Positions 8,547 through 31,614 of a stretch of 64,000 bases of DNA are shown piece by piece. A program made the position numbers and the translations under genes. Position 1 is the stretch's first letter. Every line of letters starts with the position of its first letter. This stretch comes from an uncultured Planctomycetales bacterium (GTDB lineage Bacteria > Omnitrophota > Gorgyraeia > Zapsychrales > Fredricksoniimonadaceae). The notes under the pieces were generated by a model. It saw only the letters and a program-made list of their open reading frames with translations. It ran no database searches and was not told the origin of the DNA. Where the stretch lies: the NCBI GenBank assembly GCA_964572155.1, contig CAZNDZ010000002.1, positions 147,089 to 211,088 on the forward strand, given 5' to 3'.

Positions 8547-11500
8547 TTATGGTCCAAAGTTAAGAGATGCTGTACACCAATAATACGCTCCGTCGTAGTA
8601 ACACGTCACAATGTCGGTTGATCCTGCTGCGGCGGTGAATGTTGGCGCAGCGGCCCCGTTCCATTTTACACCTGAACCACCACTTAACGTCGGTGTCCAA
8701 CCACCTGTTCCATCCTGAACAACTTTTAATAATAAATTCGCTACCCCTGATGTTGGCGGTGTCATGGTTATCGTGTATGACGCGCTCATGGTTACTTTTT
8801 GTTTATTACCACGATTCCAATCTAAGGTAAATCCTGAGCCTTGAGTTCCATTGTCATATTCACTACCCATGGTGATCAAATTATTAACCTTCAAATTACT
8901 AAACGACGCCGCTGTCCCAACACCCACATTGCCATACACATTCAAATCTGAAGATGTCAATGACGTCGTCCCGATCCCAACATTACCCCGAACAACCAAC
9001 TTAGCATAATCCGCAGTCCATGTACCGATACCAACATTTCCACTAGCAACCACAAAAGCACCTTGTGGTGCGGTTGTACCAACACCAACATTACTTAATC
9101 CATAAAGAGGCGAATAAAATGCCGCACCTGAAGAATCAATATAATTTAAACTACCAACAAGCAACTCATCAGAATTAATCCTTCCTTTGACTTCCAGATT
9201 AACACTAGGCGCCCAGGTCCCAATCCCCACATTCCCATTGGTCACCACCAACCCACCCTGCGGCGTCGATGTCCCAATCCCAATCTTATCCGACCCCGTC
9301 GTATTATAAACCGTCCCCGTCCCCGTAGACCACCCCGAAGACCCACCCGAGATAGGTAAAGTCCCCGCCGCCATCCACGTCCCAATCCCCGTCGATCCCG
9401 AGACCAACACATAGCCTGCGCCAGGACTAGTCGACAACCTAAACCCATCCGTATCCAACCGTGTCGTTGCTGTCCACGTACCCAGCCCTACATTTCCAGT
9501 CGTGACGGCTAATTTTGCCTGTGGTGTTGTTGTCCCAATCCCAACATTACCTGATTGATCAATGCGCACACGCTCAGCTGTACCAGCAGAATCGGTCGTG
9601 TAGAAAAGCAACCCCCCATAAGATGGGGTCGTCACAACTGCTTTAATCCCCGCAATTTCTCCGTATGCTCCAGCACCAAAAGCCAATGCTACAGTGTCTC
9701 CAACAGTAGTGCTACTCCCTTGAAGATATAGCGCACCAGAATTTGCACTACCGGTTTGAGTCGTAAGAACTTTCATTGCAAAGTTTCCTGACAACTGTAA
9801 ATCACCTGAATTGATTGTTAAAGCAGGCGTAGACCCACCTTGACCATTGATCTGCAATTTCGATGTTGGCGCCCACGTCCCAATCCCAACGTTCCCATTA
9901 GTCACCACCAACCCATCCTGCGGCGTCGATGTCCCAATCCCAACCTTATCAGCCCCCGTCGTATTATAAACCGTCCCCGACCCCGTCGACCACCCCGAAG
10001 ACCCACCCGAAATAGGCAACGTCCCCGCCGCCATCCATGTCCCAATCCCCGTCGATCCAGACACCAACACATAACCAGATGATGGACTCGTCGACAATCT
10101 AAACCCATCCGTATCCAAACGCGTCGTTGCTCTCCACGTTCCAAGACCAACATTGCCACCTATAACTACTAACTTAGCTTGTGGAGTTGTGGTGCCAATA
10201 CCGACATTGCCGTTTGTGCCATTGCCCTGTAACGTTAAAATAGATTGTGGATTAACGTTGCCCACAGGCGCATATTCCAAACTTAATAAACCTAGATCAT
10301 CTGTTGTATCAACCACTTGAGTCATTCTCCAGGCGCCTTTTGTTGCATCATCCTTAACAAAAGCAGCTCCGTCATAACGAAGGTTTGTGAACCACGCGTA
10401 TTGATTACTTGCCGTTGTACCCAAATATGTTCCGAACGTATTTCCAGTCCTACTAAATATTTTAAGATATGAATTAGCACCAACAGCCGGAAGACTTACA
10501 AAAAGAGGATTATCTGGTGCCCACGTCCCAATCCCCACATTTCCATTAGTAACCACAAACCCACCCTGAGGTGTCGATGTACCAATCCCAACATTATTCG
10601 ATCCGGTCGTGTTATAAACCGTCCCCGTCCCCGTCGACCATCCTGAAGACGTTGTCACTGCCAACGTCGTCGATGGAACCCATGTACCAACACCCACAGC
10701 ATTAGCTTGTAAGACATAGCTTGTTGCCGCACCCGTTGTTAATTGAAAAGCTGTTGTCCGTATTGTTCCTGAAACATCAAGGGCTGTTCCTGGATTTGAC
10801 GTACCAACACCAACATTTCCTAAAAAGTAAGAATCCCCAGAACCACTCGCCGCAATATCCCCATTAATATCTAAAGCCTTCGTCGGCGCATACGTCCCAA
10901 TCCCCACATTCCCTTGCACGATCAACCCATTGCCCGTCCCACCATAATACCCCGCATAAGAAGACCCAATCCCTACCCCACCTGACACATCCAATTTATT
11001 CGTTGACAATGAAGTCCCCAACCCAACATTCCCCGTCGCCGTAACATTACTATTAACAATCCCCGAGAACGACCCGCCATTATTATATTGCAACTGCGAA
11101 GAAGACCCACCAGGCGTCCCACCACCAGACGTAGCCAACGTAGACGCCGCCATCCACGTCCCAATACCTGTCGATCCTGAAACTAAAACATAACCTGCAG
11201 CAGGTGACGTCGATAATCTAAACCCATCGGTATCCAACCGCGTCGTCGCTGTCCACGTACCCAACCCAACATTACCCATAACCGCAAGGCCTGTTTGTGG
11301 CGTGGTTGTACCGACACCAACATTACCTTCAATTATTATTCCTCCTAATGGAGCAGAACTTGAGACATATGGAGAGTATGCTACTGTACCCAACCCAATA
11401 TTACCCGACAATGACAGTGTAGACCCTGGGATAGTTGTACCTATACCAAGCTTACCCCCAGACGTTAATCGCATTTTTTCAGATTGACTAAACGCAACAC

Positions 11501-13907
11501 TGGGCATAAATACCCAATCCATATCTCCTGAATTGGTATAATTTGTGCGTTGCAAACGCAGCGAAGCATGAGAACCTGTTACCGTAGAAGCACTGATAGA
11601 AAACCCTATATCAACATTTGCACCTGCCGACGAACTTCCTCCATTGTGAATCATAAAGGCTGGATTATTTCCTCCAGCAACAGCGTCAGAGCGAATAACA
11701 ACTTTGCCTGCCGGTGTGACCCAAGTTCCAATGCCCAAATTCCCAGACATCACAACTAATGCACTAGCTGGTGCCACTGTCCCAATCCCAACATTACCAT
11801 TCCCATCAACAACAAAAGGACTTCCCGTTAACTTATTGATTTGAAACGAAGCCTGCGGCGCCCACGTCCCTATCCCCACATTCCCATTGGTCACCACCAA
11901 CCCACCCTGCGGCGTCGAAGTACCAATTCCCACATTATCTGACCCTGTCGTGTTATAAACCGTCCCCGTCCCCGTCGACCAACCAGATGCCCCCCCCGAT
12001 ACCGGCAAAGTCCCCGCCGCCATCCACGTCCCAATCCCCGTCGCATCTGAAACCATCACATAACCCGCAGCAGGATTCGTTGATAATCTAAACCCATCCG
12101 TATCCAATCTCGTCGAAGCTGTCCATGTTCCAAGGCCTACATTGCCCATAACCGCAAGGCCTGTTTGTGGCGCTACTGTGCCTATACCAACATTTCCTTG
12201 CACAACCATCCCACCCGTTGGCGCAGCATTAACGACATACGATGAATTAATCCCTGTTCCAACCCCAACACCACCTATCACAGTTAATTTACTCCCCGGC
12301 GTTATTGTACCAACACCAATATTTCCTGAAGCACCTTTAATTGTCATTGTCGGCGCTGTAATAGCAACAGCACCTCCCGGAGCGTTAAAAATATTTAAAT
12401 CATTTGAACCATCGGATTGACGAAGATTTTGTAACTTAACAGTACCATTATTGGTCGTACTACTCGTTAGTGTTGAGGTATTTAAAACAATACTTGAAGC
12501 GGTTAGCGTGCTTGTTGAAGCATTAGAAAAAATAGCACCAATAATTTCTCCACCGTTATTTACATTAACAGCCTGCAGTGCAGCTGCTGGAACAAATGTA
12601 CCTATACCTATATTCCCTCCCATAACAACGAGCTTATCGTCTGCCGTCCAAGTACCCAAACCAACATTACCCATAACGACCAAGCCTGTCTGTGGGGTTA
12701 GTGTGCCAACGCCTAGATTACCGCCATATACAACTAATTTTCCTCCAATACTCGTGGGAGTTCCAATTCCCACATTTCCTGCTGAATCAATTGTCATACG
12801 TTGCGCGCCGCTGAGTGTTGTATTATTTCCTGCTGTATAAAATTGAAGTTCGGTTGCTGCATTTAGCACAGAACTTCCACCACCATAACGATTGGTTGTG
12901 ACACTACTACTGCTCGTTCCAACAAAAATTGCCACATCTGATTGAGCATTGGTATAGTGCCGTTGTGTGATATATGCATTCTTATTGGTAGCATCAGCAG
13001 TAGCATCTGTTAAACGCAATTGCACCGTTGAAGGACCAACAATATCCAGTTTTGTATTAGGTCTTAGTGTACCTAATCCAACATTTCCATTCATGATAAC
13101 CAAAGCGCCCTGTGGAGTTGTTGTTCCCAAACCGACATTATCTGAACCTGTCGTATTATAGACCGTTCCCGAGCCTGTCGACCAACCTGTAGCCCCCGCA
13201 CCAATCGTAGCCGGTGCCATCCACGTCCCAATCCCCGTTGATCCTGAAACCAAAACATAACCTGCGGCAGGTGACGTTGACAATCTAAAACCATCTGTGT
13301 CTAATCTTGTCGACGCTGTCCATGTACCAAGCCCCACATTCCCTAAAACAGCAAGCGCAGTTTGTGGTGCTGTTGTTCCAATACCAACATTGGGAACCAT
13401 GATCGACAAGCCACCTATAGACGTAACTGTACCAATTGCAATATTCCCGGCACCCGCACCACTGCCATTAATAAATAAATTACCATTTGCTGATAGCCCA
13501 CTATCCAATCTTGCATTTCCAGCAGCATCAACCCACCAACGCGCAGAACCAGTAAGACCACTATTAACAAGACCAACACCACCAGCATTCGTATCTGTTG
13601 TCTGATTTACATTTAACTTACCTCTGACTGTACCATCATATGACCCTATGACCGCAGTCCCTAATACTTCCAAATTTTGACGGGGCGCCCATGTTCCAAT
13701 ACCAACATTGCCTTGAGTGACAACCAAACCACCTTGAGGCGTTGTTGTACCGATACCAATATTACCGCTAGTACCATTTACAAATAAGAATGACTGGGTA
13801 CTATTTTTTACATTGAAATCTTTTGCAGCTAAGGCAGGCGCCGCTAAAACGGCTATCGCGCAAAAGTTTATAAATAATATTCTTATATAAGAGGATATAA
13901 GTTTCAT
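8547..13907 (-). CDS. Giant secreted tail-fibre-like repeat protein (1786 aa), paralog family member with a type-A C-terminal tip (QDGTGG motif).
   Basis: The signal peptide MKLISSYIRILFINFCAIAVLAAPALA is followed by AKDFNVKNSTQSFLFVNGTSGNIGIGTTTPQGGLVV. It carries dozens of GNVGIGT.TPQ..L.V..GNVG.GTW repeats and four to five copies of the module TTRLDTDGFRLSTSPAAGYVLVSGSTGIGTWMAA...TVYNTTGSDNVGIGTSTPQGGLVVTNGNVGIGTWAP. Confidence 0.8.
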   Translation of the reverse strand: MKLISSYIRILFINFCAIAVLAAPALAAKDFNVKNSTQSFLFVNGTSGNIGIGTTTPQGGLVVTQGNVGIGTWAPRQNLEVLGTAVIGSYDGTVRGKLNVNQTTDTNAGGVGLVNSGLTGSARWWVDAAGNARLDSGLSANGNLFINGSGAGAGNIAIGTVTSIGGLSIMVPNVGIGTTAPQTALAVLGNVGLGTWTASTRLDTDGFRLSTSPAAGYVLVSGSTGIGTWMAPATIGAGATGWSTGSGTVYNTTGSDNVGLGTTTPQGALVIMNGNVGLGTLRPNTKLDIVGPSTVQLRLTDATADATNKNAYITQRHYTNAQSDVAIFVGTSSSSVTTNRYGGGSSVLNAATELQFYTAGNNTTLSGAQRMTIDSAGNVGIGTPTSIGGKLVVYGGNLGVGTLTPQTGLVVMGNVGLGTWTADDKLVVMGGNIGIGTFVPAAALQAVNVNNGGEIIGAIFSNASTSTLTASSIVLNTSTLTSSTTNNGTVKLQNLRQSDGSNDLNIFNAPGGAVAITAPTMTIKGASGNIGVGTITPGSKLTVIGGVGVGTGINSSYVVNAAPTGGMVVQGNVGIGTVAPQTGLAVMGNVGLGTWTASTRLDTDGFRLSTNPAAGYVMVSDATGIGTWMAAGTLPVSGGASGWSTGTGTVYNTTGSDNVGIGTSTPQGGLVVTNGNVGIGTWAPQASFQINKLTGSPFVVDGNGNVGIGTVAPASALVVMSGNLGIGTWVTPAGKVVIRSDAVAGGNNPAFMIHNGGSSSAGANVDIGFSISASTVTGSHASLRLQRTNYTNSGDMDWVFMPSVAFSQSEKMRLTSGGKLGIGTTIPGSTLSLSGNIGLGTVAYSPYVSSSAPLGGIIIEGNVGVGTTTPQTGLAVMGNVGLGTWTATTRLDTDGFRLSTSPAAGYVLVSGSTGIGTWMAASTLATSGGGTPGGSSSQLQYNNGGSFSGIVNSNVTATGNVGLGTSLSTNKLDVSGGVGIGSSYAGYYGGTGNGLIVQGNVGIGTYAPTKALDINGDIAASGSGDSYFLGNVGVGTSNPGTALDVSGTIRTTAFQLTTGAATSYVLQANAVGVGTWVPSTTLAVTTSSGWSTGTGTVYNTTGSNNVGIGTSTPQGGFVVTNGNVGIGTWAPDNPLFVSLPAVGANSYLKIFSRTGNTFGTYLGTTASNQYAWFTNLRYDGAAFVKDDATKGAWRMTQVVDTTDDLGLLSLEYAPVGNVNPQSILTLQGNGTNGNVGIGTTTPQAKLVVIGGNVGLGTWRATTRLDTDGFRLSTSPSSGYVLVSGSTGIGTWMAAGTLPISGGSSGWSTGSGTVYNTTGADKVGIGTSTPQDGLVVTNGNVGIGTWAPTSKLQINGQGGSTPALTINSGDLQLSGNFAMKVLTTQTGSANSGALYLQGSSTTVGDTVALAFGAGAYGEIAGIKAVVTTPSYGGLLFYTTDSAGTAERVRIDQSGNVGIGTTTPQAKLAVTTGNVGLGTWTATTRLDTDGFRLSTSPGAGYVLVSGSTGIGTWMAAGTLPISGGSSGWSTGTGTVYNTTGSDKIGIGTSTPQGGLVVTNGNVGIGTWAPSVNLEVKGRINSDELLVGSLNYIDSSGAAFYSPLYGLSNVGVGTTAPQGAFVVASGNVGIGTWTADYAKLVVRGNVGIGTTSLTSSDLNVYGNVGVGTAASFSNLKVNNLITMGSEYDNGTQGSGFTLDWNRGNKQKVTMSASYTITMTPPTSGVANLLLKVVQDGTGGWTPTLSGGSGVKWNGAAAPTFTAAAGSTDIVTCYYDGAYYWCTASLNFGP
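9210..9490 (-). repeat. Dispersed conserved module of about 290 bp (about 97 aa), GC-rich, copy 1 of at least 10 full copies across the fibre paralogs.
   Basis: Contains the core cccacgtcccaatccccacattcccattggtcaccaccaacccaccctgcggcgtcga...gtccccgccgccatccacgtcccaatccccgtcgatcc, with about 85-90% nucleotide identity to the other copies. Confidence 0.5.
9868..10160 (-). repeat. Dispersed module of about 290 bp, copy 2.
   Basis: Same core sequence. The antisense arginine-rich shadow ORF 9902..10159 nearly duplicates the one at 9242..9448. Confidence 0.5.
11860..12160 (-). repeat. Dispersed module of about 290 bp, copy 3.
   Basis: Same core sequence, read directly. Confidence 0.5.
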
Positions 13908-13908
13908 T

Positions 13909-14032: not shown

Positions 14033-16162
14033 TCACTGATTGCGCTTTTGTTCTTTCATCAAAGTTCTTAGAGCTTCAATTTCTTTTTGAAAATTTCTAC
14101 TATTTTCCTTTAACATATCAACCTGTTGCGTTAAAATATTAACCTTTTCTTTGATTTCATCACGACCCTCGTCGAAACCTTCCCACCAATGTGGATTAAC
14201 ATAGACCATAACTAAGTCGTATGGCTTGGTTGAAGCTTTCATCAATGGTTCAAGGGCCATACCAACCACACGCCCTGACTTCACAGCTTTTGCACCAATG
14301 CCCGCACGCGATGAACTTGTGATCATATCACCAATATGTATAGGGCCATTTTCAAGACTGACCTTAACAGGGATTCTTCCAGCCAAAGCAACCGCAGGTT
14401 TATTGGGCTGTAGTGTATATCCCTTGCCATTGATAATACCAACACTAGACCCCTCAATAACAATGGCTGGCTCCGTCGAGACAACACCAAAGAGGTAGTT
14501 ATTGTAAATATTTACGGCTTTCATGACCGTAACGGATGAACGCACATCGAGCATGACAACATCACCATTATCAACAGGCTCTGAAGATGGGATAAGTTCT
14601 GCTAAGTCAACACATGACGTTGTCCCTGTACTTGACGAACATCCACCAATCTGCAAACTATAATTTGCATTGGCCGTACCAATCCCCACATTACCCCCTT
14701 GCACAATCAACGCCGCTCGAGGAGAAAACGTTCCAATACCAACATTCCCATTAATAACCACTAATTTCGCTTGTGGCGTGTTTGTTCCAATACCAATATT
14801 ATTCTCGACAATAAGTCCCCCATTAGGAGCTGCCGTCAGAATAAAACTATTGTTACGATTAGTACCTATCGCAATACCACCACTTGTTACAACAAATTTA
14901 CTTAGTGGATAAACAGTACCTATCCCCACATTCCCACGATATGTCGCAGAAGAACTCACGCCAAGCAAAACATTACCAACAACCCCTGACCCTGAATTTG
15001 CTCCACCAACAATAAAAACATCTCCACCTTTTCCATTCCCGCTCGATGAGCTTCCACCGGAAATTGCTGCATTACCTGGATCGCCACCATTCTGAGCAGC
15101 GCCACCAGCAAGAGAAAGAGCGCCACCATGATTAGGCGAACCATTATTTCCACCACTACCACCAGAAATAGTAACTGGTCCTCCGTAAAGAGATGAACCG
15201 CTTCCTCCAGTCAACGTTAAACTTGAAGCCGTAACACTTCCACTCCCACTCATCGTAAATGACGATGCACCTAAACTGTTATAGGTTCCACTTGTTAACG
15301 TTATTGAACCACCTTGAGACACACTTGTAGAATTACCCCCAGAAATTGAAAAACTTCCTTGTGCAACTGATGCTGACGTAGACGTTCCAATTGTTAAACT
15401 GATACTTCCAGAACCAGCTCCGGCACTAGAACCAGATGTGATTGATATACTACCACCTGTTCCACTGGTAGACCCACCAACACCACCGGTTAAGGCAATA
15501 CCACCACCATTTCCACCATTAGAACCAGCACCCCCTGTCATGGATAGTCCACCACCGGAAGTATTTCCAGTTCCGGCGCCGCCTTTTAGAACCACCGCTG
15601 ATGTAACATTTGGTGCACCAAGAACCGAGAAAAATGATTGCGGAAAAATACTTCCTATACCCACATTTCCATTAGCGACAACAAATGCTCCAGCCGGAGC
15701 CCACGTCCCAATCCCAACATTCCCATTGGTCACCACAAATCCACCCTGCGGCGTCGATGTCCCAATCCCAATTCTATCAGCCCCAGTCGTGTTATAAACC
15801 GTCCCAGTACCCGTCGTCCACCCTGACGTCCCACCCGAAATAGGCAAAGTCCCCGCCGCCATCCACGTCCCAATCCCAGTCGAATCCGACACCATCACAT
15901 AACCCGCCGCTGGATTTGTTGATAACCTCAACCCATCCGTATCCAACCGCGTCGTCGCTGTCCAAGTCCCTAGACCAACATTCCCACCAATAACCGCTAA
16001 CTTAGCTTGCGGGGTTGAGGTGCCGATACCGAAGTTTCCACTGCTAGCCGTTGGAGCTGGACTATCGGTATCATTAAAGTTAATCCCCGACGACCAAGCA
16101 GACTGTAAACCCATAATGAGGACAATGGTTAAACATAGATAAAGTAAACGGGTTCGTATCAT
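14033..16162 (-). CDS. Secreted fibre-family protein (709 aa). It has the same N-terminal repeats and module, a central Gly/Ser-rich low-complexity region, and a distinct C-terminal globular domain followed by a coiled coil.
   Basis: Signal peptide, then GNFGIGTSTPQAKLAVIGGNVGLGTWTATTRLDTDGLRLSTNPAAGYVMVSDSTGIGTWMAAGTLPISGG. The middle is (G/S/T)n, e.g. GGAGTGNTSGGGLSMTGGAGSNGGNGGG. The C-terminus is ...GDVVMLDVRSS...GRIPVKVSLENGPIHIGDMITSSSRAGIGAKA...EIKEKVNILTQQVDMLKENSRNFQKEIEALRTLMKEQ. Confidence 0.75.
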   Translation of the reverse strand: MIRTRLLYLCLTIVLIMGLQSAWSSGINFNDTDSPAPTASSGNFGIGTSTPQAKLAVIGGNVGLGTWTATTRLDTDGLRLSTNPAAGYVMVSDSTGIGTWMAAGTLPISGGTSGWTTGTGTVYNTTGADRIGIGTSTPQGGFVVTNGNVGIGTWAPAGAFVVANGNVGIGSIFPQSFFSVLGAPNVTSAVVLKGGAGTGNTSGGGLSMTGGAGSNGGNGGGIALTGGVGGSTSGTGGSISITSGSSAGAGSGSISLTIGTSTSASVAQGSFSISGGNSTSVSQGGSITLTSGTYNSLGASSFTMSGSGSVTASSLTLTGGSGSSLYGGPVTISGGSGGNNGSPNHGGALSLAGGAAQNGGDPGNAAISGGSSSSGNGKGGDVFIVGGANSGSGVVGNVLLGVSSSATYRGNVGIGTVYPLSKFVVTSGGIAIGTNRNNSFILTAAPNGGLIVENNIGIGTNTPQAKLVVINGNVGIGTFSPRAALIVQGGNVGIGTANANYSLQIGGCSSSTGTTSCVDLAELIPSSEPVDNGDVVMLDVRSSVTVMKAVNIYNNYLFGVVSTEPAIVIEGSSVGIINGKGYTLQPNKPAVALAGRIPVKVSLENGPIHIGDMITSSSRAGIGAKAVKSGRVVGMALEPLMKASTKPYDLVMVYVNPHWWEGFDEGRDEIKEKVNILTQQVDMLKENSRNFQKEIEALRTLMKEQKRNQ
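15700..15990 (-). repeat. Dispersed module of about 290 bp, copy 4 (inside the 709 aa gene).
   Basis: Same core sequence, read directly. Confidence 0.5.
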
Positions 16163-16199: not shown

Positions 16200-16988
16200 T
16201 TATTCCGTTATCTTCATATTACTTAATTTCACATTGCTCAACTTATTTGGCATTGATTTATATAATTGCAAAACATCCGCATCTGTTAGAGCTCTGCTGT
16301 AAATCCGAAGCTCATCAATGATCCCATTAAAATACGCATTATAGCCAGACGCAGTATATCTTCGCCCAATCGTAAGCGCGGTAGAATCATAGGCAATGGT
16401 GCCCCCCGCATACCCAGTAGTCCCTTCCAGAACACCATTTAAATATGTTTTTATATTCGCTCCATCATATGTTCCAGTAAAAAAATACCAACTGCCTGCT
16501 GATAAACTTGTTGTACTAACTGCAGCATTTAAGTAACTTTTTACATGAAAATATAAGAGATGCCCAGAGCTTTTATAAACAACATAGGCATCATCAGTTG
16601 CCGTATTGTTCGCTTTCCCCAAAACATACATTGAACTAGTAGAAGCCCCTCCACTAACAGTTGTTGTCGTCAACGCATTTAATTTAAACCAGAATGAAAC
16701 TGTAATATAAGATGGGGTGATGCTTGAGCTATTTGATATGCTTACATAATCATTTACCCCATCGAAATTCAATGCCCCCGGCCCAATTCTTCCAGCAACA
16801 TAAGTCGGACTACTATTACAAGTACCCGTATTAGCATTTCTCGTTGAATCAACCACCGTCGCACCTGCACATGCTCCAGAAGACGCCTCATTCATTCTCC
16901 ACCAAGCCACAAGCCCAGTACGAATGTCTGCCTGTACAGGATTTGCTAGAAATAAAAATAGGACTGTTAAAATAATTTTATGCATCAT
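16200..16988 (-). CDS. Secreted LamG-domain protein, second partner gene. Its start ATG overlaps the stop of the upstream fibre gene in the sequence TAATG.
   Basis: MMHKIILTVLFLFLANPVQADIRTGLVAWWRMNEASSG ... YFNGIIDELRIYSRALTDADVLQLY. The ORF track starts it at a TTG at 17003. The ATG at 16988-16986 shares its A with the TAA stop at 16990-16988. Confidence 0.75.
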   Translation of the reverse strand: MMHKIILTVLFLFLANPVQADIRTGLVAWWRMNEASSGACAGATVVDSTRNANTGTCNSSPTYVAGRIGPGALNFDGVNDYVSISNSSSITPSYITVSFWFKLNALTTTTVSGGASTSSMYVLGKANNTATDDAYVVYKSSGHLLYFHVKSYLNAAVSTTSLSAGSWYFFTGTYDGANIKTYLNGVLEGTTGYAGGTIAYDSTALTIGRRYTASGYNAYFNGIIDELRIYSRALTDADVLQLYKSMPNKLSNVKLSNMKITE

Positions 16989-20830: not shown

Positions 20831-20950
20831 CACTGATGGAGCACATCAAAGCAGTTAGTGGACTTTGATATGCCCCGCTCTTGACAAAGATATTTCTACG
20901 TGATATAAATAAATTATCGTTAGTGGAGTGCTTTGAGCTACTGGAGTTTA

Positions 20951-20984
20951 GGGCAAGGTGATTTTCATCTTGCCCTTTTTCTTT
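20951..20984 (+). terminator. Rho-independent terminator on the plus strand, about 120 nt downstream of the tRNA-like element.
   Basis: GGGCAAG-gtgattttcat-CTTGCCC followed by TTTTTCTTT. Confidence 0.5.
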
Positions 20985-21019
20985 GCCCCATATATAGTTT
21001 AAATCGATTCTCATCTCTA

Positions 21020-24000: not shown

Positions 24001-25114
24001 TCCATGTACCTAGCCCAACATTTCCCATTGAAACAAACCCTGTTTGTGGCGTCGTCGTCCCTAAACCAACGTTGCCTTGCACAATCATCCCGCCTGTCGG
24101 CGCAGCCGTTGAAACATAGTTTGAATTAAAACCAGTTCCTATGCCAACACCACCTGCGACAGACAAGAGACTTGCTGGTTCAGTTGTGCCAATACCCACA
24201 TTACCAGCATTCTTCACAATAAATAAATCACCTAACACAGTACCGCTATTGATTGCAAAATTATCATCTGAAGTAGTCTTAAAAATCTCTAAATTAACAT
24301 TACTATGGACCGTATTCGATCCCCTAGACACAGCCACACTACCCTGATTATTTGTTGTAACAACTGTTAATGATGAGGCCCCTGCATTACAATCAAGACC
24401 TGCACTGGTTGAGGAATAACAGAAATCAAATTGATTGATATCACTATCATATAAAAGGCTAGCGTGGGATACTCCCGCATCATAAAACTTAATACCAATG
24501 ATGCCAGATGTAAATGTTTTGGAACTCCCCTTATCGCCGATCGACATATACGCTCCATTGACATCAAACGCAGAAGTCGTTGAAGTATAATTCGTGATAT
24601 TCGAGATAATTGCTGCATCACCAATAACGTACAAATTCCTAGAAGCCACCCACGTCCCAATCCCCACATTCCCATTCATTACACTTAACGCAGCTGCCGT
24701 AGTTATTGTTGTACCTAAACCCACATTTCCATTACTTGGCAAATAGACATCATTAGTGTTTGTCGTCGTCCACTGTGAAGATCCACCCGATATCGGCAAA
24801 GTCCCCGCCGCCATCCACGTCCCAATACCTGTTGTATCGGAAACTAAAACATGTCCTGCGCTTGGATTTGTATTTAATTGTAGGCCTGTGGTGCGGGTGG
24901 TGCCTTGGACGTCAAATACAGTGCCGGGCGTTAAGGATCCAATGCCAACATTTCCGCCGATGACAATCAACTTACCACCAAAGGCACTAAAGGTACCGAT
25001 ACCTAAATTCGACGAGGAACCTGTGTCTGACAATGGAAAATAAGATGCCTGCGCCATTTTTAACGCCGCCATCAACACCAAAACCACTATCCCAACAATC
25101 AATTTATTACGCAT
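21020..25114 (-). CDS. Giant secreted tail-fibre-like repeat protein (1364 aa), paralog with a type-A C-terminal tip (QDGTGS). It has no LamG partner.
   Basis: Signal peptide and the GNVGIGT repeats. It shares a module of about 150 aa with the 1786 aa protein (GIGTWAPDNPLF[IV]SLP..GSNSY..IF...GNTF.TYLGTTA.NQY.W.TNLRYDGAAFVKDDATKGAWR.TQVVDTT). The C-terminus RVVWEIIQDGTGSRTITLDTKFQLG matches VVQDGTGGWTPTLSGG in the 1786 aa protein. Confidence 0.8.
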   Translation of the reverse strand: MRNKLIVGIVVLVLMAALKMAQASYFPLSDTGSSSNLGIGTFSAFGGKLIVIGGNVGIGSLTPGTVFDVQGTTRTTGLQLNTNPSAGHVLVSDTTGIGTWMAAGTLPISGGSSQWTTTNTNDVYLPSNGNVGLGTTITTAAALSVMNGNVGIGTWVASRNLYVIGDAAIISNITNYTSTTSAFDVNGAYMSIGDKGSSKTFTSGIIGIKFYDAGVSHASLLYDSDINQFDFCYSSTSAGLDCNAGASSLTVVTTNNQGSVAVSRGSNTVHSNVNLEIFKTTSDDNFAINSGTVLGDLFIVKNAGNVGIGTTEPASLLSVAGGVGIGTGFNSNYVSTAAPTGGMIVQGNVGLGTTTPQTGFVSMGNVGLGTWTASTRLDTDGFRLSTSPAAGYVLVSGSTGIGTWMAAGTLPISGGTSGWSTGTGTVYNTTGADKVGIGTSTPQGGLVVTNGNVGIGTWAPDNPLFISLPGIGSNSYVRIFNTAGNTFSTYLGTTATNQYSWLTNLRYDGAAFVKDDATKGAWRATQVVDTTNAASRFDLQYSPVGVVTPVSILSLQGNASTGNVGIGSQAPGSLLDVLGNIRTSTLLATGNVGVGTSTAQGALVVTNGNVGVGTWAPKLDFDVNGSLGVKPAGSGYPTSLSSSLAGKAYVVHPGSNWGLVVARATNDSGAANLTFYHTRSSDASTNTTLQTGDFVGRFSFQGAVGSGTVIEGAEIGTVVNGTVDGSNLPTDIYFKTLSTGVGGGGERMRITSSGNIGIGTSTPQGGFVVTNGSVGIGTWAPASQFHVKGGSAGLRIQRTGGGFFEPFIILYNNDDASSDGGQIRGNVNETGLRFTNSSSQAEWMRINASGNIGIGTVDPKSALTVVRGVGIGTGFNSSYVSTTAPSGGMIVEGNVGIGSLSPGTALDIQGTTRTTGLQLNTNPSAGYVLVSGSTGIGTWMAAGTLPISGGSSGWSTTNTNDVYLPSSGNVGLGTSATNRSALTVMNGNVGIGTFAPAAMFQVNPLTTSPFVIDSVGNIGIGTTFTQGGAVSILTGNVGINTWTPQAWLDINAPYTGSTTPLAYIHGGCAGCARTVLLRNTNATTSSSSGITFGFGVAALTAASASIQGMYTSSSSTDLVFYTLKSGGSVYEAVRFADGGNVGIGTSVPTVQLAVMNGGTVGIGTWMSSGGAKVSIVGNIGLGTSANGEYLTTAPPLGGMIIQGNVGIGTATPQTGLAVMGNVGIGTVTAANGALIVKGGNVGIGTALAPTTLSLKGGFSQIVTTLTDAASVATDASLGNHFRLTTTQNFTLSNPTNPTDGQRVVWEIIQDGTGSRTITLDTKFQLGSDISSVTLTTTASKRDFLTAIYNVVADKWYVVGFAKGY
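23745..24010 (-). repeat. Dispersed module of about 290 bp, copy 7.
   Basis: Same core sequence, read directly. Confidence 0.5.
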
Positions 25115-25132
25115 AAATTCTTTCCTTAAATA

Positions 25133-25882
25133 TCAATTCATCCGATAATTCTCAATCTTCCCCGCCCCATTCATCTTAAACCGCGGCTCACCCGAATTAT
25201 AAATCGCCTTGATCTCCGTCTCAGTAAGCACCCGATTATAAAGCCGTACATCATCGATACTTCCACTAAAAAGCTGTGATGCTGCAGCACGCCGACCAAT
25301 AGCTTTTGCTCCACTGGAGTTTGAATACGTAAGACCTACATGGTTAGTTAGACTAACCGAAACTCCATTCACATAAATACTACTCGTTGCACCTGCTCCG
25401 TTCTTGATATACGCAATATGCGTCCAAACATTCTGTGTAAGCGTCCCACTTACTGACTCCACATCAACTTGACCAGTATATAAGCTTCCCACTCTTCCTG
25501 ATCCTGCACTAGCAGGACCTTGACCAACTTCAAACATAAATGCATTTACTGCATTTTCTTGTCCAAATACTGTATATCGCGTTGTTAATGAACCGCTAAA
25601 ATATATCCATGCTGTAAACGTAAATGTATTTCCAATAGCAATAAGTTGAGCTGGAAGTGCTATATAGTCATCTGATGCATCAAAGCTAATCCCGCCATTT
25701 CTCTTACCACTTACCCATGTCGGTCCATTTGTCAATGTACCTGTATTTCCTTGACCGCTCGAATCACTAGTAGTAACGCCACTCCCCTCATCCAACTTCC
25801 ACCACCCCACCAATCCATCCGTGACGTCGGCATGCGAAGAAGTGCTACACATTAAAATAAACACAAATAGTAAATACCTCAT
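25133..25882 (-). CDS. Secreted LamG-domain protein, third partner gene. Again a TAATG stop/start overlap with the upstream fibre gene.
   Basis: MRYLLFVFILMCSTSSHADVTDGLVGWWKLDEGSGVTTSDSSGQGNTGT ... LFSGSIDDVRLYNRVLTETEIKAIY. The ATG at 25882-25880 shares its A with the TAA at 25884-25882. The ORF track uses a TTG at 25897. Confidence 0.75.
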   Translation of the reverse strand: MRYLLFVFILMCSTSSHADVTDGLVGWWKLDEGSGVTTSDSSGQGNTGTLTNGPTWVSGKRNGGISFDASDDYIALPAQLIAIGNTFTFTAWIYFSGSLTTRYTVFGQENAVNAFMFEVGQGPASAGSGRVGSLYTGQVDVESVSGTLTQNVWTHIAYIKNGAGATSSIYVNGVSVSLTNHVGLTYSNSSGAKAIGRRAAASQLFSGSIDDVRLYNRVLTETEIKAIYNSGEPRFKMNGAGKIENYRMN

Positions 25883-28800
25883 TAAATCACCCACCAATTA
25901 CTCCCATCACAAACAATCGTATAAGCTTGATATTGTGTTGTTGTTGAAATGGTTGTTGCTCCGTCGATGGTTTCAGCGGCATTGCCGTCAATGATGACAG
26001 AGTTGCCAGATGAATCCGTTTTCTTAATGTAATAAACACGTCCTGAAACCCCGCTAGCTGCAGGCAATGTGATTGTGACTGAACCACCAGAAGCATCAAC
26101 TAAAATTACATAATCACCAGCACTGGCCGTATAATCCGCCGATTTGCTAACCACCTGCACACCCATAGACCCTTTGACTTGTAAATATGATTGAGCCGTC
26201 CATGTGGCGATACCAACATTACCATTAGTGATTGTAAATGCACCTTGAGGGGTATTGGTCCCAATACCAATATTCGTGCCGTTATCAAATATGCTTGAAT
26301 TACCAACCGCCGTTGTGGATGTTGCCTTTTGAATAAAATTGGCTGTCATGGACGAATATGATGGATACGTATTTGTATCAACAGACAATGTCCCGTCAGC
26401 CGACCCTGTTTTAACAAAACCATTGGATGTCAAATTTGTTAATTTAGGCGCATTAACACCCGTCGAGAATTTACCCGTTCCAACCACATCCAACGACTGC
26501 GTTGGATTTACACTTCCTATTCCCACATTGGTTGTAAAATACGTATCCCCCGTCCCATAAACATCCAACAAAGCCTGCGGCGCCCACGTCCCAATCCCCA
26601 CATTCCCATTGGTCACCACCAATCCACCCTGTGGAGTCGACGTCCCAATCCCCACATTATCAGACCCAGTTGTGTTATACACCGCCCCCGACCCCGTCGA
26701 CCAACCAGACGCCCCACCCGCCCCAATACTAGAAGGCGACATCCACGTCCCAATCCCCGTTGATCCAGAAACCAAAACATAACCTGCGGAAGGTGACGTT
26801 GACAATCTAAACCCATCCGTGTCCAACCTCGTCGTCGCTGTCCAAGTACCAAGACCAACATTACCCATCGACACAAATCCTGTTTGCGGAGTTGTCGTTC
26901 CCAAACCAACATTGCCTTCAACAATCATCCCCCCTAAGGGCGCTGCTTGGCTAACATACGATGAATTTATACCAGTACCAATCCCAACACCACCCGTAAC
27001 TGAAAGCAATGATCCGGGCAGTACTGTTCCAATACCCATATTCCCTACACTAGTAATACGCACTCTTTCAACAGTTGAGTCAACTGTACTGCTACCCGCT
27101 GAATTTGTATAAAAACTCAAATCTCCAACTGAATTACCACCCGTTCTTATAAAAACAATCTTTGAACCAAGCGTTATAGCATTGTTCGAAATATTAAAAC
27201 CTAATCCAGTAGCAACGCCGGTTGTCACAGAATTATTCATCAATCGTAACCCCAAATTCGAAACACCAGGAGTAATTGCGTTGTTGTTTAAAACAATATC
27301 CATTGAAGTTGACGGAGACCAAGTACCAACACCAACATTGCCACCTGCCTGCACATTAAATTTACGCGCCACATCAAACAAAGTAATTGCTGTCCAAGTC
27401 CCAATTCCCACATTCCCATTGGTCACCACAAACCCACCCTGCGGCGTCGACGTCCCAATCCCAACATTACCACCAATCACAGCTAATCTCGCAGTAGCAA
27501 ATGTCATATCTGTACCAATACCAATGTTACCCCCGTTATCGATACGCATACGTTCAAATGGAGCCGATGAACTTCCATCTGATGGATTTGTCCAAAATGT
27601 AATTCTCCCTTTTGGATAAGTATCATTCTCAAATCGGATCCAAGCAGAACCAGTCGTGTCAGAAGCATTTCCTAAAATATTGGCAGAAATTTTTCCTAAT
27701 GTTCCTGTATTAGTAACATCATTCGTAGCAAAATGAATTGAATTTTGTCCCAATAATGTCCTATTACCAGCAAGCACTCCACGAGCAGGACTACCTGCAA
27801 ATGATCCAACTCCATTTGTATCCATCGCGTAAGCAGGTACCCAAGTCCCAATACCCACATTTCCATTTGTAATGACCAACGAGCCTTGTGGCGTTGAAGT
27901 TCCTATGCCAACTTTATCATAGGTTCCAATACCTACACCAGCCGTTGTAAACCATTGACTCGAACCACTACTGGAAACCGGTAAAGTCCCCGCCGCCATC
28001 CAAGTACCAATCCCCGTCGAGTCAGAGACCATCACATACCCAGCAGCAGGTGACGTTGACAATCTAAACCCATCCGTGTCTAACCTCGTCGTCGCTGTCC
28101 AAGTACCAAGACCAACATTACCCATTGAAACAAAACCAGTTTGCGGTGTTGTCGTTCCTAAACCAACATTACCTTCAACGATCATTCCTCCCGATGGCGC
28201 TGCAGCTTGAACAAAGTTAGAGGCTGAAGTTGTTCCAACACCAATTGACAACCCTGAACTTCCTGCAATGGTCAGTGAACTCTTGGGATAAAAAGTACCT
28301 ATACCGACATTGCCAATAAAACCTGCTGAACCAAAATTTGCTGGCCTTGCAACATACATCCCGACTGAAGGATTCGTAGAATAACCAGAACCACCAACTA
28401 AGATCCCACCATTATTTGAATAATTTGTCGGATTAAAATACCCAGGATAATACGTGTGAAAGAAAAAGCTTGTAGCTCCAGCAAAAGCTACCCCAAAATA
28501 TGTATGTCTATTCTGATCAGAATTGATATAGGCTGCGAGGCTGTTATTGTCATGGTTAGCTCTAAACAAATACTGCGCACTACCAACAGCAGTTTTCTGA
28601 ATGGCTAATATATTCTCCGTTGTTGTTGTATTAATCCCAACATTACCAACGATGTATGTCGGACCCCGCACATCAAAAAAATCTCTAGGAGCCCACGTCC
28701 CAATCCCGACATTCCCATTAGTCACAACCAACCCGCCCTGCGGCGTCGAGGTGCCAATACCAACATTATCCGACCCTGTCGTGTTATATACCGTCCCAGT

Positions 28801-31614
28801 CCCCGTTGACCAACCTGTAGAACCCGCCCCGATGGTTCCCGGAGCCATCCACGTCCCTATACCTGTTGATCCTGAAACTAAAACATATCCAGACGCAGGA
28901 TTCGTCGATATCCTAAGACCAGTCGTATCTAGCGCCGCAATCGGTGCATATGTGCCAATACCAATATTGTTTTCAACAATTAACCCACCATTTGGTGAAA
29001 TATTTCTAATAAATGAAGAATTTAAATTTGTTCCAATACCAATCCCCCCTGCCACAACAAGCTTACTCAATGGATCTACTGTTCCAATACCAAGATTCCC
29101 ACCACTTGCGAGAAACATATTGCCGCCATTAAATGTGATGTCACCCGTTGTTCCTTGATCTCTAAATGCTAAAAATGGATTTGAAGAAGCGTCTATAAGT
29201 CTAAATTCTTGAGCGGCACTGTTATATGACTGCGCAAATAAAGAAGCTGTTCCAAAATAAATGAACTGATTATCTATTGCGGTCAATGTTCCTGTAAAAA
29301 AAATCCGATTAAACGCATCCCGTGTTGTATACCCTTTGAGTGTTGGTCCATATGTATTAGAAAGTGAATCAACTATAAGACCTGTTCGATACCCACCCGA
29401 ACTAGCCCCTTCAACAACCAATGGCCCCTGTGGCGCAAATGTACCTAAACCAACATTCCCACCCATCACAATCAATTTTCCACCCGCCGTTACCCAAGTC
29501 CCAACACCAACATTACCTTGCACAATCATCCCACCTGTCGGCGCAGAAGTTGATACATACGTTGAATTCAATCCAGTTCCAATACCCACTCCACCAGCGA
29601 CTGATAATTTACTTACAGGGTATGTTGTTCCAACACCAACATTACCATTATCAAAAATAGTTGAGTCACCAACAGCACTTGTCGATGTGGCTTTTTGAAT
29701 AAAATTAGTTGTCATCGATGAATAGGATGGATAGGTATTTGTATCAACAGATAATGTCCCGTCCCCTGAACCTGTTTTTACAAAACCATTGGATGTTAAA
29801 TTTGTGATTTTAGGGGCGTTAACACCTGTAGTAAATTTACCCGTACCAACAACATCTAACGATTGTGTTGGTGAAGCACTACCAATACCCACATTGGTTG
29901 TAAATGTACTATCTCCCGAACCTTTAACATCAAGCAAAGCCTGAGGCGCCCACGTCCCAATTCCCACATTGCCATTCGTCACCACCAATCCACCCTGTGG
30001 AGTCGACGTCCCAATCCCCACATTATCAGACCCAGTTGTGTTATACACCGCCCCCGACCCCGTCGACCAACCAGACGCCCCACCCGCCCCAATACTAGAA
30101 GGCGACATCCACGTCCCAATACCCGTCGATCCAGAAACTAAAACATAACCAGCAGCTGGTGAAGTCGACAATCTAAACCCATCCGTATCCAATCGTGTTG
30201 TCGCTGTCCATGTCCCTAAACCAACATTTCCTAAAACAGCCAATGCAGCTTGTGGTGTTGTGGTACCAATACCAACGTTTCCTTCGACAATCATTCCGCC
30301 ATTAGGCGGTACTGCTGTTATAAATGTACCGCCAGCAACAGTACCGATCCCAATGTTGCCAACTATCCCTAATCTAGCACTCGGTGCAATCGTGCCAATA
30401 CCTACATTGCCATTCACCAATCGCATATGAGAGGTTCCCAATCCAAAATTACCAAATCCTAAATCAATATAATCACCGTTCCCCGATGACGTTGATGAAT
30501 TTAATTTCAAAAAGGCATTCTGGTTACTCGCACCATTTATGGTTAATCCCGAATTTACTGTAGACGTGCCATTTTGAATGAGGGCTGATGCCCCAGAAGC
30601 GTACAAGAGGAAAGAAGAATTATTAAGCGTTGCACTCGTAAAACCATTGATAGATGTAATAGCGCCCGTGGCACTAACTTGAAAACCAGTGCCTCCGTTT
30701 CCACCCCCAACTTGGAAAACATTCTGCGCCAAAAGAGTTCCAATTCCAACATTACCACCCATCACCGTCAATGCACTTTGAGGTATCGTCGTGCCGATAC
30801 CAACATTCCCACCTGTTACAATTAACCTTCCTGATGATGCATCCGTCGTACCAACCCCCACATTATCCGTCGACGTCGTCAAATGCACCATGGTGCCATC
30901 GTCGGTAAATCCACCACCACTGGCCGCAGCTGGAAGATTTGTTAATAACGCACCATCACCTGAAAATGCCATCGCTCGAACTGCGCCATTAACATCTAAT
31001 GCCGTACCCGGTGCCAATGTTCCAACGCCAATATTACCTTGAACAATCATCCCACCAGCTGGAGCTGTTGTTGTGACAAATGCTGAACTCGCCGTGCCAA
31101 TACCTACTGATCCATTTACTGCTAATTGATTATTAGTTGTAATTGTACCAATACCAACATTCCCGCCAACGTTTACGATAATACCATTACTATTAAAATC
31201 ACTAAGAGTCATGGCAGACGTTGTAGACCATCCCCTAATTTGTGCGCCTCCTGCGACGCTCGACATTACAGCCCCATTTACCACCGCAATTTGAGTACCA
31301 TAAATCGCACCATTCACTTTTAAAGGAACTTCAGGAGATCTAGTACCGATACCAACATTGCCTCCTAAAACAATTACTTTTCCACCCGTGGTAACCCACG
31401 TACCAATCCCAACATTTCCGTTCGTTACCACAAATCCACCTTGTGGCGTCGTCGTACCAAAACCAATATTGCCGCTAGCTCCGCTAACATACAGGAAAGA
31501 CTGTGTGTCGTTTTTAATATTAAAGTCTTTAGCTAACGCATAGGAAGAAAACATAGCGCTGCCGCAGAGGATGACGACGAGGATTCTTATGGCTGAAATG
31601 AAGGTTTTTTTCAT
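25882..31614 (-). CDS. Giant secreted tail-fibre-like repeat protein (1910 aa), paralog with a type-B C-terminal tip (...ETIDG...SNWWVI).
   Basis: MKKTFISAIRILVVILCGSAMFSSYALAKDFNIKNDTQSFLYVSGASGNIGFGTTTPQGGFVV, with three copies of the shared module. The C-terminus GRVYYIKKTDSSGNSVIIDGNAAETIDGATTISTTTQYQAYTIVCDGSNWWVI aligns with the tip of the 1223 aa protein. Confidence 0.8.
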   Translation of the reverse strand: MKKTFISAIRILVVILCGSAMFSSYALAKDFNIKNDTQSFLYVSGASGNIGFGTTTPQGGFVVTNGNVGIGTWVTTGGKVIVLGGNVGIGTRSPEVPLKVNGAIYGTQIAVVNGAVMSSVAGGAQIRGWSTTSAMTLSDFNSNGIIVNVGGNVGIGTITTNNQLAVNGSVGIGTASSAFVTTTAPAGGMIVQGNIGVGTLAPGTALDVNGAVRAMAFSGDGALLTNLPAAASGGGFTDDGTMVHLTTSTDNVGVGTTDASSGRLIVTGGNVGIGTTIPQSALTVMGGNVGIGTLLAQNVFQVGGGNGGTGFQVSATGAITSINGFTSATLNNSSFLLYASGASALIQNGTSTVNSGLTINGASNQNAFLKLNSSTSSGNGDYIDLGFGNFGLGTSHMRLVNGNVGIGTIAPSARLGIVGNIGIGTVAGGTFITAVPPNGGMIVEGNVGIGTTTPQAALAVLGNVGLGTWTATTRLDTDGFRLSTSPAAGYVLVSGSTGIGTWMSPSSIGAGGASGWSTGSGAVYNTTGSDNVGIGTSTPQGGLVVTNGNVGIGTWAPQALLDVKGSGDSTFTTNVGIGSASPTQSLDVVGTGKFTTGVNAPKITNLTSNGFVKTGSGDGTLSVDTNTYPSYSSMTTNFIQKATSTSAVGDSTIFDNGNVGVGTTYPVSKLSVAGGVGIGTGLNSTYVSTSAPTGGMIVQGNVGVGTWVTAGGKLIVMGGNVGLGTFAPQGPLVVEGASSGGYRTGLIVDSLSNTYGPTLKGYTTRDAFNRIFFTGTLTAIDNQFIYFGTASLFAQSYNSAAQEFRLIDASSNPFLAFRDQGTTGDITFNGGNMFLASGGNLGIGTVDPLSKLVVAGGIGIGTNLNSSFIRNISPNGGLIVENNIGIGTYAPIAALDTTGLRISTNPASGYVLVSGSTGIGTWMAPGTIGAGSTGWSTGTGTVYNTTGSDNVGIGTSTPQGGLVVTNGNVGIGTWAPRDFFDVRGPTYIVGNVGINTTTTENILAIQKTAVGSAQYLFRANHDNNSLAAYINSDQNRHTYFGVAFAGATSFFFHTYYPGYFNPTNYSNNGGILVGGSGYSTNPSVGMYVARPANFGSAGFIGNVGIGTFYPKSSLTIAGSSGLSIGVGTTSASNFVQAAAPSGGMIVEGNVGLGTTTPQTGFVSMGNVGLGTWTATTRLDTDGFRLSTSPAAGYVMVSDSTGIGTWMAAGTLPVSSSGSSQWFTTAGVGIGTYDKVGIGTSTPQGSLVITNGNVGIGTWVPAYAMDTNGVGSFAGSPARGVLAGNRTLLGQNSIHFATNDVTNTGTLGKISANILGNASDTTGSAWIRFENDTYPKGRITFWTNPSDGSSSAPFERMRIDNGGNIGIGTDMTFATARLAVIGGNVGIGTSTPQGGFVVTNGNVGIGTWTAITLFDVARKFNVQAGGNVGVGTWSPSTSMDIVLNNNAITPGVSNLGLRLMNNSVTTGVATGLGFNISNNAITLGSKIVFIRTGGNSVGDLSFYTNSAGSSTVDSTVERVRITSVGNMGIGTVLPGSLLSVTGGVGIGTGINSSYVSQAAPLGGMIVEGNVGLGTTTPQTGFVSMGNVGLGTWTATTRLDTDGFRLSTSPSAGYVLVSGSTGIGTWMSPSSIGAGGASGWSTGSGAVYNTTGSDNVGIGTSTPQGGLVVTNGNVGIGTWAPQALLDVYGTGDTYFTTNVGIGSVNPTQSLDVVGTGKFSTGVNAPKLTNLTSNGFVKTGSADGTLSVDTNTYPSYSSMTANFIQKATSTTAVGNSSIFDNGTNIGIGTNTPQGAFTITNGNVGIATWTAQSYLQVKGSMGVQVVSKSADYTASAGDYVILVDASGGSVTITLPAASGVSGRVYYIKKTDSSGNSVIIDGNAAETIDGATTISTTTQYQAYTIVCDGSNWWVI
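26585..26880 (-). repeat. Dispersed module of about 290 bp, copy 8.
   Basis: Same core sequence, read directly. Confidence 0.5.
28690..28950 (-). repeat. Dispersed module of about 290 bp, copy 9.
   Basis: Same core sequence, read directly. Confidence 0.5.
29945..30240 (-). repeat. Dispersed module of about 290 bp, copy 10.
   Basis: Same core sequence, read directly. Confidence 0.5.

Follow-up and report, generated by a model that had tools for sequence, protein, structure and literature searches.

A recurrent 96-residue module in tail-fibre-like proteins of an Omnitrophota genome, with probable patchy gene conversion and a GC-ending codon bias

Phage tail-fibre genes, such as T-even gp37/gp38 and those of the P2/Mu type, evolve as mosaics by recombination at conserved motifs. 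Cassette-based antigenic variation is known from Neisseria pilE/pilS, with its G-quadruplex (G4) initiator, and from Borrelia vlsE and Treponema tprK. Enrichment of GC at third codon positions (GC3) together with concerted evolution, attributed to GC-biased gene conversion, is found in mammalian histones, Hsp70 and recombining bacterial core genes. The Omnitrophota are uncultured, mostly host-dependent nanobacteria, and the subject here is a 64,000-nt stretch of an Omnitrophota metagenome assembly (GCA_964572155.1, contig CAZNDZ010000002.1), called the window below and numbered from its first letter. Six of its genes, g1 to g6, encode secreted-looking proteins with N-terminal signal-like sequences, packed with GNVGIGT-type repeats, and a module of 96 residues recurs in the first five of them and, in degenerate form, in g6.

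The mosaic adhesive trimer (MAT) fibre superfamily of Bdellovibrio bacteriovorus was described by Caulton et al. (2024, PMC10769870), with PDB entry 8ond representing Bd2133. Giant repeat proteins of Omnitrophota are the subject of West-Roberts et al. (2023, bioRxiv 10.1101/2023.11.21.568195) and of a 2026 preprint (10.64898/2026.06.07.730766), which concludes that the repeats have largely lost their similarity at the nucleotide level. The terms 'gene conversion', 'concerted', 'recombination' and 'tail fib' occur in the available text of neither preprint.

The module occupies 282-288 nt per copy on the minus strand, at 9207-30228 in g1-g5 (Table 1). A phmmer search with the consensus of a first-pass annotation of this DNA returned 13 full copies at 122-175 bits (four each in g1 and g5, three in g3, and one each in g2 and g4) and six partial or variant copies, one of them that of g6. 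At least three isolated copies of the module 3' unit also occur. These results bear out the annotation on the module length of about 290 bp, the copy number, the five genes and the consensus, and the 70-mer that it quoted as an example has three matching sites when up to 3 mismatches are allowed, where chance would give 0. Its figure of 85-90% nucleotide identity, third positions included, applies to the five core-group copies of Table 1 (83-89%) and to the pair g5_463/g5_1585 (92%) but not to the full copies overall, whose 78 pairs average 76% identity (62-92%) and 54% (33-80%) at third positions. Outside the module, identity drops to 43-57% upstream and 34-39% downstream. Four-fold-site identity between copies is 0.50, compared with 0.37 expected from shared composition alone. 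Two unrelated copies would already match at 37-45% of four-fold sites because of a bias toward G-ending codons (see below), and much of the third-position conservation therefore does not reflect recent common ancestry. Three things contribute to the high nucleotide identity: the protein sequence is strongly conserved, ancestry is partly shared, and the module has a bias of its own toward G-ending (more generally GC-ending) synonymous codons.

The module is probably a conserved structural unit of about 96 residues in secreted fibre-like proteins, with its copies linked by infrequent, patchy gene conversion. Occasional non-reciprocal recombination of this kind would transfer short stretches, from tens of nt to about 150 nt long, from a copy in one gene to a copy in another, and such exchange would give rise to mosaic copies, recombined versions of the middle segment and genome-specific versions of the module. 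A Sawyer-type permutation of polymorphic sites gives a sum of squared condensed fragments (SSCF) with z = 13.7 over all sites and 7.1 when restricted to third positions, with 24 of the 78 pairs individually at p < 0.05, and the pairwise homoplasy index (PHI) test gives p = 0.0005 for all informative sites. The nearest neighbour of a copy changes from one module segment to another. For example, g1_190 and g5_1585 are 91% identical in columns 1-41 and 64% in columns 69-96, and the middle segment of g5_1166 is 76% identical to that of g3_488, with a median of 51% to other copies. The middle segment has at least four alternative versions, joined to common 5' and 3' segments.

Exact tracts point in the same direction. 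Two g5 copies sit in a duplication of about 690 nt (26250-26934 versus 29618-30300), 84% identical, that contains an exact tract of 143 nt. An independent NCBI contig (JACCDT010082146.1, of GCA_013565695.1), 100% identical to the window over 10375-26738 (16.4 kb), stops at 26738, after 127 nt of this tract, the behaviour expected of a k-mer assembler that meets a genuine exact repeat. The variant copy g4_902 holds a 54-nt exact patch (22247-22300) shared with the canonical copy g1_1252 (9984-10037); nowhere else in the interior of g4_902 do G-ending codons form a run. The permutation and PHI tests, the segment-wise neighbours and the exact tracts amount to the tract-like, mosaic similarity for which the first-pass annotation had proposed a GENECONV-style check. 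Its suggestion of ongoing recombination between paralogs stands as far as exchange is concerned, but the copies are not nearly identical, so homogenisation would have to be slow or patchy. About half of the four-fold sites differ in a typical pair, which indicates that exchange is infrequent.

The window's genome (W) was compared with three related Omnitrophota metagenome-assembled genomes (MAGs): CAZFNI01, which has at least 22 modules, JABDCU01, which has 8, and OTE78, which has 1 on a short contig. The PBP2 of CAZFNI01 is 77% identical to that of the window, and the gene order of PBP2 followed by g6 is kept. The modules carry diagnostic residues, which are TRLDTDGFRLSTSPAAGYVLVSGS in W, ASLETTGLRLIGNGAAAGSVLVSSS in CAZFNI01 and KLDVQGTVRSTGLAVSGQGAAPGYVLTATDS in JABDCU01, and 39 of 40 copies have their nearest neighbour in their own genome, a result that third positions alone reproduce. 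Four-fold synonymous identity of the modules, at 0.50 within W, is 0.37 between W and CAZFNI01. Several flanking contexts, the g2-like flank being one case, are common to W and CAZFNI01 and hold genome-specific modules. The domain after module W_26578 is 97% identical in amino acids to that after CAZFNI01 L003_7037, while the adjoining modules share 74% identity; with other W modules, W_26578 shares 79-99%. A homologue in OTE78, collinear with the C-terminal third of g4, has a canonical module in the slot of the g4 variant module. Judged from these alignments, module versions that follow the genome, set in shared contexts, are what concerted evolution would produce.

Among 1.84 billion proteins, 1765 representatives match a profile of the module at E <= 1e-3. 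The related loci in the species-representative genome collection all belong to Omnitrophota MAGs, some of them labelled 'uncultured Planctomycetales'. A metagenome scan found no close relatives, with a best full-length match of 56% amino acid identity; a protein word search gave one 73% fragment, and contigs from other runs are identical to the window or chimeric. A literature search for the motif NVGIGT found no paper. The module family is sizeable and, as far as these searches show, undescribed.

The six large proteins have no match in Pfam or NCBIfam, and the module profile likewise retrieved no sequence from the PDB. PHROG tail-fiber families match g4 (phrog_9942, 1e-28) and g1 (phrog_18345, 5e-21, and phrog_9942 as well). 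g4 also has a weak PDB match (E 1.4e-4) to the beta-helix region of Bd2133 in 8ond, with the motif ERMRI..GN.G.GT. The last 110 residues of g4 (21023-21352) form a tip whose homologues number over 1100, reach 79% identity and are flagged as PF26209 (Phage_phiTE_241_C) in precomputed tables. An AlphaFold2 model of the tip has a pLDDT of 90, and its best Foldseek matches are the phage tail fibre 6o38, the Pa223 phage capsid spike and CBA120 TSP4, at probability 0.96-1.00 and a TM of about 0.5. The pre-module plus module, modelled by AlphaFold2 as a monomer, reached a pLDDT of 57 and was left out of the fold search. A Pfam scan found no Peptidase_S74 chaperone domain in any of the proteins. It is likely that the cluster encodes tail-fibre-like adhesins that function in attachment to host or prey cells. 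Many of the g4 tip homologues are stand-alone proteins of 110-250 residues, one of them from Saccharimonadales.

Several observations weigh against exchange between the copies, and these suit a history of birth-and-death duplication and domain shuffling, in which likeness would come from purifying selection and the module codon preference. Synonymous divergence (dS, by the NG86 method) is 0.89 at the median of the 78 pairs and never falls below 0.31. Four-fold identity for columns 1-41, 42-68 and 69-96 is 0.56, 0.55 and 0.52 against 0.33, 0.45 and 0.45 expected, an excess of +0.23, +0.10 and +0.07 over composition alone, and the last of these segments, the 3' third that holds the example quoted in the first-pass annotation, is barely above expectation. 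A neighbouring paralogous element just before the module shows a similar excess (0.42 versus 0.30, +0.12), so the comparison with other paralogous regions, where equal synonymous divergence would have meant purifying selection alone, gives a mixed answer. At synonymous sites the flank that follows W_26578 (flank B) likewise clusters with its own genome, with 0.60 within W and 0.33 between genomes, and the gene architectures of W and CAZFNI01 differ, as turnover would lead one to expect, which leaves positional orthology fuzzy. Lineage-specific duplication therefore probably contributes to the by-genome pattern too. In addition, the Sawyer-type permutation is sensitive to regional rate variation, and PHI on third positions only is marginal (p = 0.07). 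Even so, duplication and turnover with no exchange at all appear rather unlikely, since they leave unexplained the 143-nt exact tract in an 84% identical duplication, the 54-nt patch in a variant copy, the segment-wise changes of neighbour, the significant runs and the PHI result on all sites, and they need about 15 genome-specific residues to be common to modules in contexts found in both genomes.

The module is visibly richer in GC than the flanking coding sequence, as the first-pass annotation had it, and the enrichment takes the form of a G-ending codon bias. GC is 0.55 in the module versus 0.44 in the rest of the same genes, and GC3 is 0.52 versus 0.31; housekeeping genes have a GC3 of 0.31-0.44. 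The shift is confined to G-ending codons (GGG, ACG, GCG, TCG and GTG), with shares in the module and the rest of 56 versus 21% for GGG, 56 versus 29% for ACG and 58 versus 25% for GCG, and C-ending codons are depleted. At four-fold sites in the window, G is 0.47 versus 0.20 and C is 0.06 versus 0.12. The bias begins about seven codons into the module and continues to its end, and the boundary is sharp. Comparison of the same peptide, GN[VI]G[IVL]GT, by location provides a matched control that is decisive for a module-specific bias. G-ending codons account for 77% of the four-fold codons in 13 motifs at the module 3' end, 20% in 11 motifs at the module 5' edge, 27% in 68 motifs elsewhere in g1-g5 and 9% in the 37 motifs of g6.

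As a by-product of the G-ending codons, the module 3' ends contain 12 canonical G4 motifs (GGGAATGTGGGGATTGGGACGTGGG, encoding NGNVGIGTW), all on the coding strand, and none occurs on the plus strand or elsewhere in the 64 kb. The G4 motif was rejected as a conserved feature, since just 3 of 22 modules of CAZFNI01 have it, and the JABDCU01 modules are C-rich, not G-rich, at third positions. The module profile recovered 41 non-redundant Omnitrophota loci from genomes and metagenomes, and at 40 of these the module exceeds the remainder of its own open reading frames (ORFs) in four-fold GC, the mean difference being +0.14 (Wilcoxon p = 8e-11). G and C are both raised on average across these loci (+0.065 and +0.071), with C dominant in many genomes. 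GC bias at synonymous sites is thus a property of the module across the phylum. The variant segment DVQGTTRTTG of g4_63 and g4_902 has runs of C-ending codons, like the JABDCU01 modules, whereas canonical modules are G-ending; both types are GC3-rich, by different bases.

GC-biased gene conversion is the leading candidate for the cause of the codon bias, although a tentative one. GC-biased repair of heteroduplexes during exchange between copies would raise the GC of the module, and the raised four-fold GC in nearly all of the loci is as predicted. Other results run against it. G and C would both be expected to rise, and in the window G is up and C is down. The GC excess shows no correlation with within-genome synonymous similarity (Spearman rho 0.05, 28 loci). 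Derived variants comprise 5 weak-to-strong (AT-to-GC) and 14 strong-to-weak changes at mean frequencies of 0.22 and 0.24, so the expected frequency excess of the former is not seen in a test that is underpowered (n = 19) and has a distant outgroup. The internal repeats of g6 (33412-35060 versus 35695-37418) are 82% identical in nucleotides and 90% in amino acids, with exact shared tracts up to 182 nt and a four-fold identity of 0.70, above that of the modules, yet their four-fold GC of 0.32 equals the background. Selection on the DNA itself is the alternative cause. RNA structure as a source of synonymous constraint was rejected, with a minimum-free-energy z-score of +0.51 and an RNAalifold covariation term of 0.06.

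It is conceivable, but improbable, that the module is a built-in recombination cassette, whose synonymous GC (in this lineage as G-runs with G4 or Chi-like potential on the non-template strand) is kept high across the phylum to promote homologous exchange. If so, host-dependent Omnitrophota could bring together new combinations of fibre tips and of the segments that recognise the host. It is much more doubtful that the G-rich module, with its non-template-strand G4 runs, is the initiator of a programmed, frequent cassette-like shuffling of the pilin type. The placement of all 12 G4 motifs on the coding strand in module 3' ends, a G-run density over g1-g5 of 2-3 times background, and conserved segments around a variable middle with at least four alleles would agree with such a system. 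Against it, silent or truncated cassettes are absent, with all 19 copies inside six long intact ORFs with signal-like N-termini, and no recombinase was found among the ORFs scanned against Pfam. The scarcity of G4 motifs in CAZFNI01 and the C-rich third positions of JABDCU01 also speak against it, the copies differ by 8-38%, which implies slow turnover, and three assemblies are identical over 2.4-16 kb apart from one copy-switching contig tail. The antigenic-variation-like shuffling raised in the first-pass annotation is thus not borne out, and the available assemblies show no genuine sequence variation. A diversity-generating retroelement was dismissed, with no reverse transcriptase among the ORFs scanned against Pfam and copy differences that involve all bases and are not adenine-specific.

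The module could also be foreign DNA, acquired horizontally from, for example, higher-GC phage fibre genes and not yet ameliorated. Protein homology to phage tail fibres and the sharp compositional boundary would fit, but this origin is very unlikely given a GC excess that recurs in many genomes of different background GC, module sequences that are genome-specific and group by genome, and copies that are old (dS about 0.9) and still G-rich.

Nor do assembly or polishing errors across the repeats, which might have made the mosaic patterns and identical tracts, seem at all likely to account for them. The window is a metagenome assembly, and the population comparison is at the level of assemblies (the NCBI contig and Logan contigs L129 and L128). 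L128 (SRR10036063) passes from the g2 module to the g3_488 module at an exact 39-mer (window 15929 and 19145), with a tail from about position 2314; the switch is most likely an assembly chimera, although it may be a real recombinant. Public contigs break at modules, and with L128 this counts against gene conversion in that part of the mosaic may be artefact. On the other side, the NCBI contig agrees with the window throughout its 16.4 kb and L129 is identical over 2.4 kb, and the end of the NCBI contig inside the 143-nt tract fits an exact repeat present in the reads. An assembly switch swaps flanks and cannot make internal patches, and the codon bias and by-genome signatures are independent of assembly.

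The large genes of the window are all on the minus strand. Its right half encodes the housekeeping proteins PBP2, MreD, PhoH, AspRS, HisRS, DnaE, GuaA, GuaB, ferrochelatase and ribonucleotide reductase, and their presence beside the fibre-like genes indicates that the locus is bacterial chromosome and not phage. The proteins of the 16.4-kb stretch shared with JACCDT010082146.1 are also present in Logan assemblies of SRR10036058 and SRR10036063 and on a 420-kb contig, and the exact g2 protein is on JACCDT010082146.1.

LamG-type lectin genes directly follow g1, g3 and g5. This pairing recalls phage fibre genes trailed by a chaperone or adhesin gene, and the LamG proteins may bind the fibre tips. 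A 117-residue ORF of the NCBI record (20661-21014, minus strand) overlaps the tRNA-Val(aac) gene and is probably spurious; an Rfam scan found nothing besides a tRNA. Neither Pfam nor PDB sequence searches matched the C-terminal domain of g2 (14033-14700; CVDLAELIP...GDVVMLD... and then a coiled coil). In CAZFNI01 a counterpart with 54% identity is an ORF of its own (L019, 378 residues), which points to gene fusion or fission between the relatives. The first 7.4 kb of the window, ORF-free according to the ORF list, are in fact covered by a giant ORF that runs past the window edge: 3-7388 (minus strand) encodes the N-terminal 2462+ residues of another giant protein, with a signal peptide and DUF11, unrelated to g1-g6.

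Table 1. Positions of genes, module copies and related features in the window
Feature	Position	Strand	Description
g1	8547..13907	-	1786-aa secreted GNVGIGT-repeat protein (ORF and translation); 4 full and 2 partial modules
g2	14033..16162	-	709 aa; 1 full module, Gly/Ser-rich middle, C-terminal domain ending in coiled coil
g3	16988..20659	-	1223 aa; 3 full modules, 1 partial, 1 isolated 3' unit
g4	21020..25114	-	1364 aa; 1 full and 2 variant modules, phage-like tip domain
g5	25882..31614	-	1910 aa; 4 full modules, 1 isolated 3' unit
g6	31740..39431	-	2563 aa; same superfamily, one degenerate module, own large internal repeats
LamG-type lectin gene	7822..8541	-	5 nt downstream of g1; PF13385 3.8e-26
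LamG-type lectin gene	16200..16988	-	starts at g3 stop codon (1 nt inside); PF13385 1.6e-28
LamG-type lectin gene	25133..25882	-	starts at g5 stop codon (1 nt inside); PF13385 1.6e-26
tRNA-Val(aac)	20757..20831	+	between g4 and g3, opposite strand
g1_1472, full, core group	9207..9494	-	175 bits; highest GC3 of copies (0.65)
g1_1252, full, core group	9867..10154	-	168 bits; 89% nt identity to g1_1472
g1_1031, partial	10515..10817	-	variant 5' half with background codon usage; canonical G-rich 3' half
g1_879, partial	11013..11273	-	80 bits; 5' two-thirds canonical, 3' end unrelated
g1_589, full, core group	11856..12143	-	171.5 bits; 83-86% nt identity to other core copies
g1_190, full	13059..13340	-	141 bits; most diverged full copy, GC3 0.36
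g2_61, full, core group	15695..15982	-	166 bits
g3_982, partial	17408..17716	-	canonical 5' half alone
g3_705, full	18260..18547	-	145 bits
g3_488, full	18914..19198	-	alternative middle segment SSSGSSQWF..GVGIGTY, common only to g5_1166
Isolated 3' unit	19742..19831	-	GVGTTTPQGGLVVTNGNVGIGTW; G-rich codons, G4 motif; similar units 22772-22909, 27391-27480
g3_66, full	20183..20464	-	5' part diverged (73-77% nt); 3' part 86-92% identical to other copies
g4_902, variant	22127..22381	-	holds 54-nt exact patch matching g1_1252
g4_365, full, core group	23735..24022	-	174 bits
g4_63, variant	24647..24898	-	DVQGTTRTTGLQL type
g5_1585, full	26578..26862	-	152.5 bits
g5_1166, full, mosaic	27835..28119	-	5' part 89% identical to g5_1585
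g5_883, full	28687..28968	-	134 bits
g5_463, full	29944..30228	-	154 bits; 92% nt identity to g5_1585
g6 degenerate variant copy	31869..32141	-	63 bits; GC3 0.27
143-nt exact tract	26612..26754 = 29978..30120	-	inside 84%-identical g5 duplication
G4 motif, example	23740..23764	-	GGGAATGTGGGGATTGGGACGTGGG
Other 11 G4 motifs	starts 9212, 9872, 11861, 15700, 18265, 18919, 19744, 20188, 24649, 26583, 28692	-	

The evidence supports slow, patchy gene conversion and concerted evolution of the module. On that reading, the locus adds a little-known phylum to those whose surface-protein families evolve in this familiar way. The GC enrichment, with its sharp boundary inside one repeated peptide motif, is a clean natural test case that could separate biased gene conversion from DNA-level selection on codon usage in bacterial repeat families. 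As a practical warning, the modules break short-read assemblies and can yield chimeric contigs.

Compared with cassette-based antigenic variation, the locus has in common the conserved segments around variable ones, the G4 motifs on one strand and the non-reciprocal exchange. It differs in having no expression site with silent cassettes, in G4 motifs that lie inside coding repeats and are not conserved in relatives, in the high divergence between copies, and in that no population variation is seen among assemblies. The GC-biased gene families resemble it in that copies are closer within a genome than between genomes and the repeat unit has a higher GC than its flanks, the latter in 40 of the 41 loci. 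Unlike those families, only G is raised in the window and C is lowered, the enrichment does not scale with similarity, and the g6 repeats are unenriched.

The giant proteins described for Omnitrophota are from the same phylum and, in the available parts of the two preprints, are very long, repeat-rich, probably extracellular and implicated in host interaction. The classes named in those parts are the HEAT/TPR 'Archaeovorins', the dockerin/TSP3 proteins and the multi-enzyme proteins, and GNVGIGT fibre proteins are not among them.

Phage tail fibres share with this locus the use of conserved blocks as crossover points between variable, specificity-bearing segments, and the likeness extends to the PHROG tail-fiber homology, the 6o38-like tip fold and the small gene directly after three of the fibre genes. 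Here the exchange would be between paralogues of one bacterial chromosome, and LamG lectins, instead of known fibre chaperones, are encoded downstream.

The MAT fibres of B. bacteriovorus belong to another phylum, the S74 chaperone domain was not found here, and trimers and surface display are predicted here by analogy. The available text of PMC10769870 has no keyword match to the 96-residue module or its codon signature. In both cases a bacterium that depends on a host or prey encodes on its chromosome several paralogous surface fibres resembling phage tail fibres, with a repetitive shaft and diverse C-terminal tips, and g4 and Bd2133 have a weak match to each other. The locus may be viewed as a tail-fibre-like surface protein family comparable to the MAT fibres, in which recombination of a shaft module among paralogues could plausibly generate new combinations of fibres.

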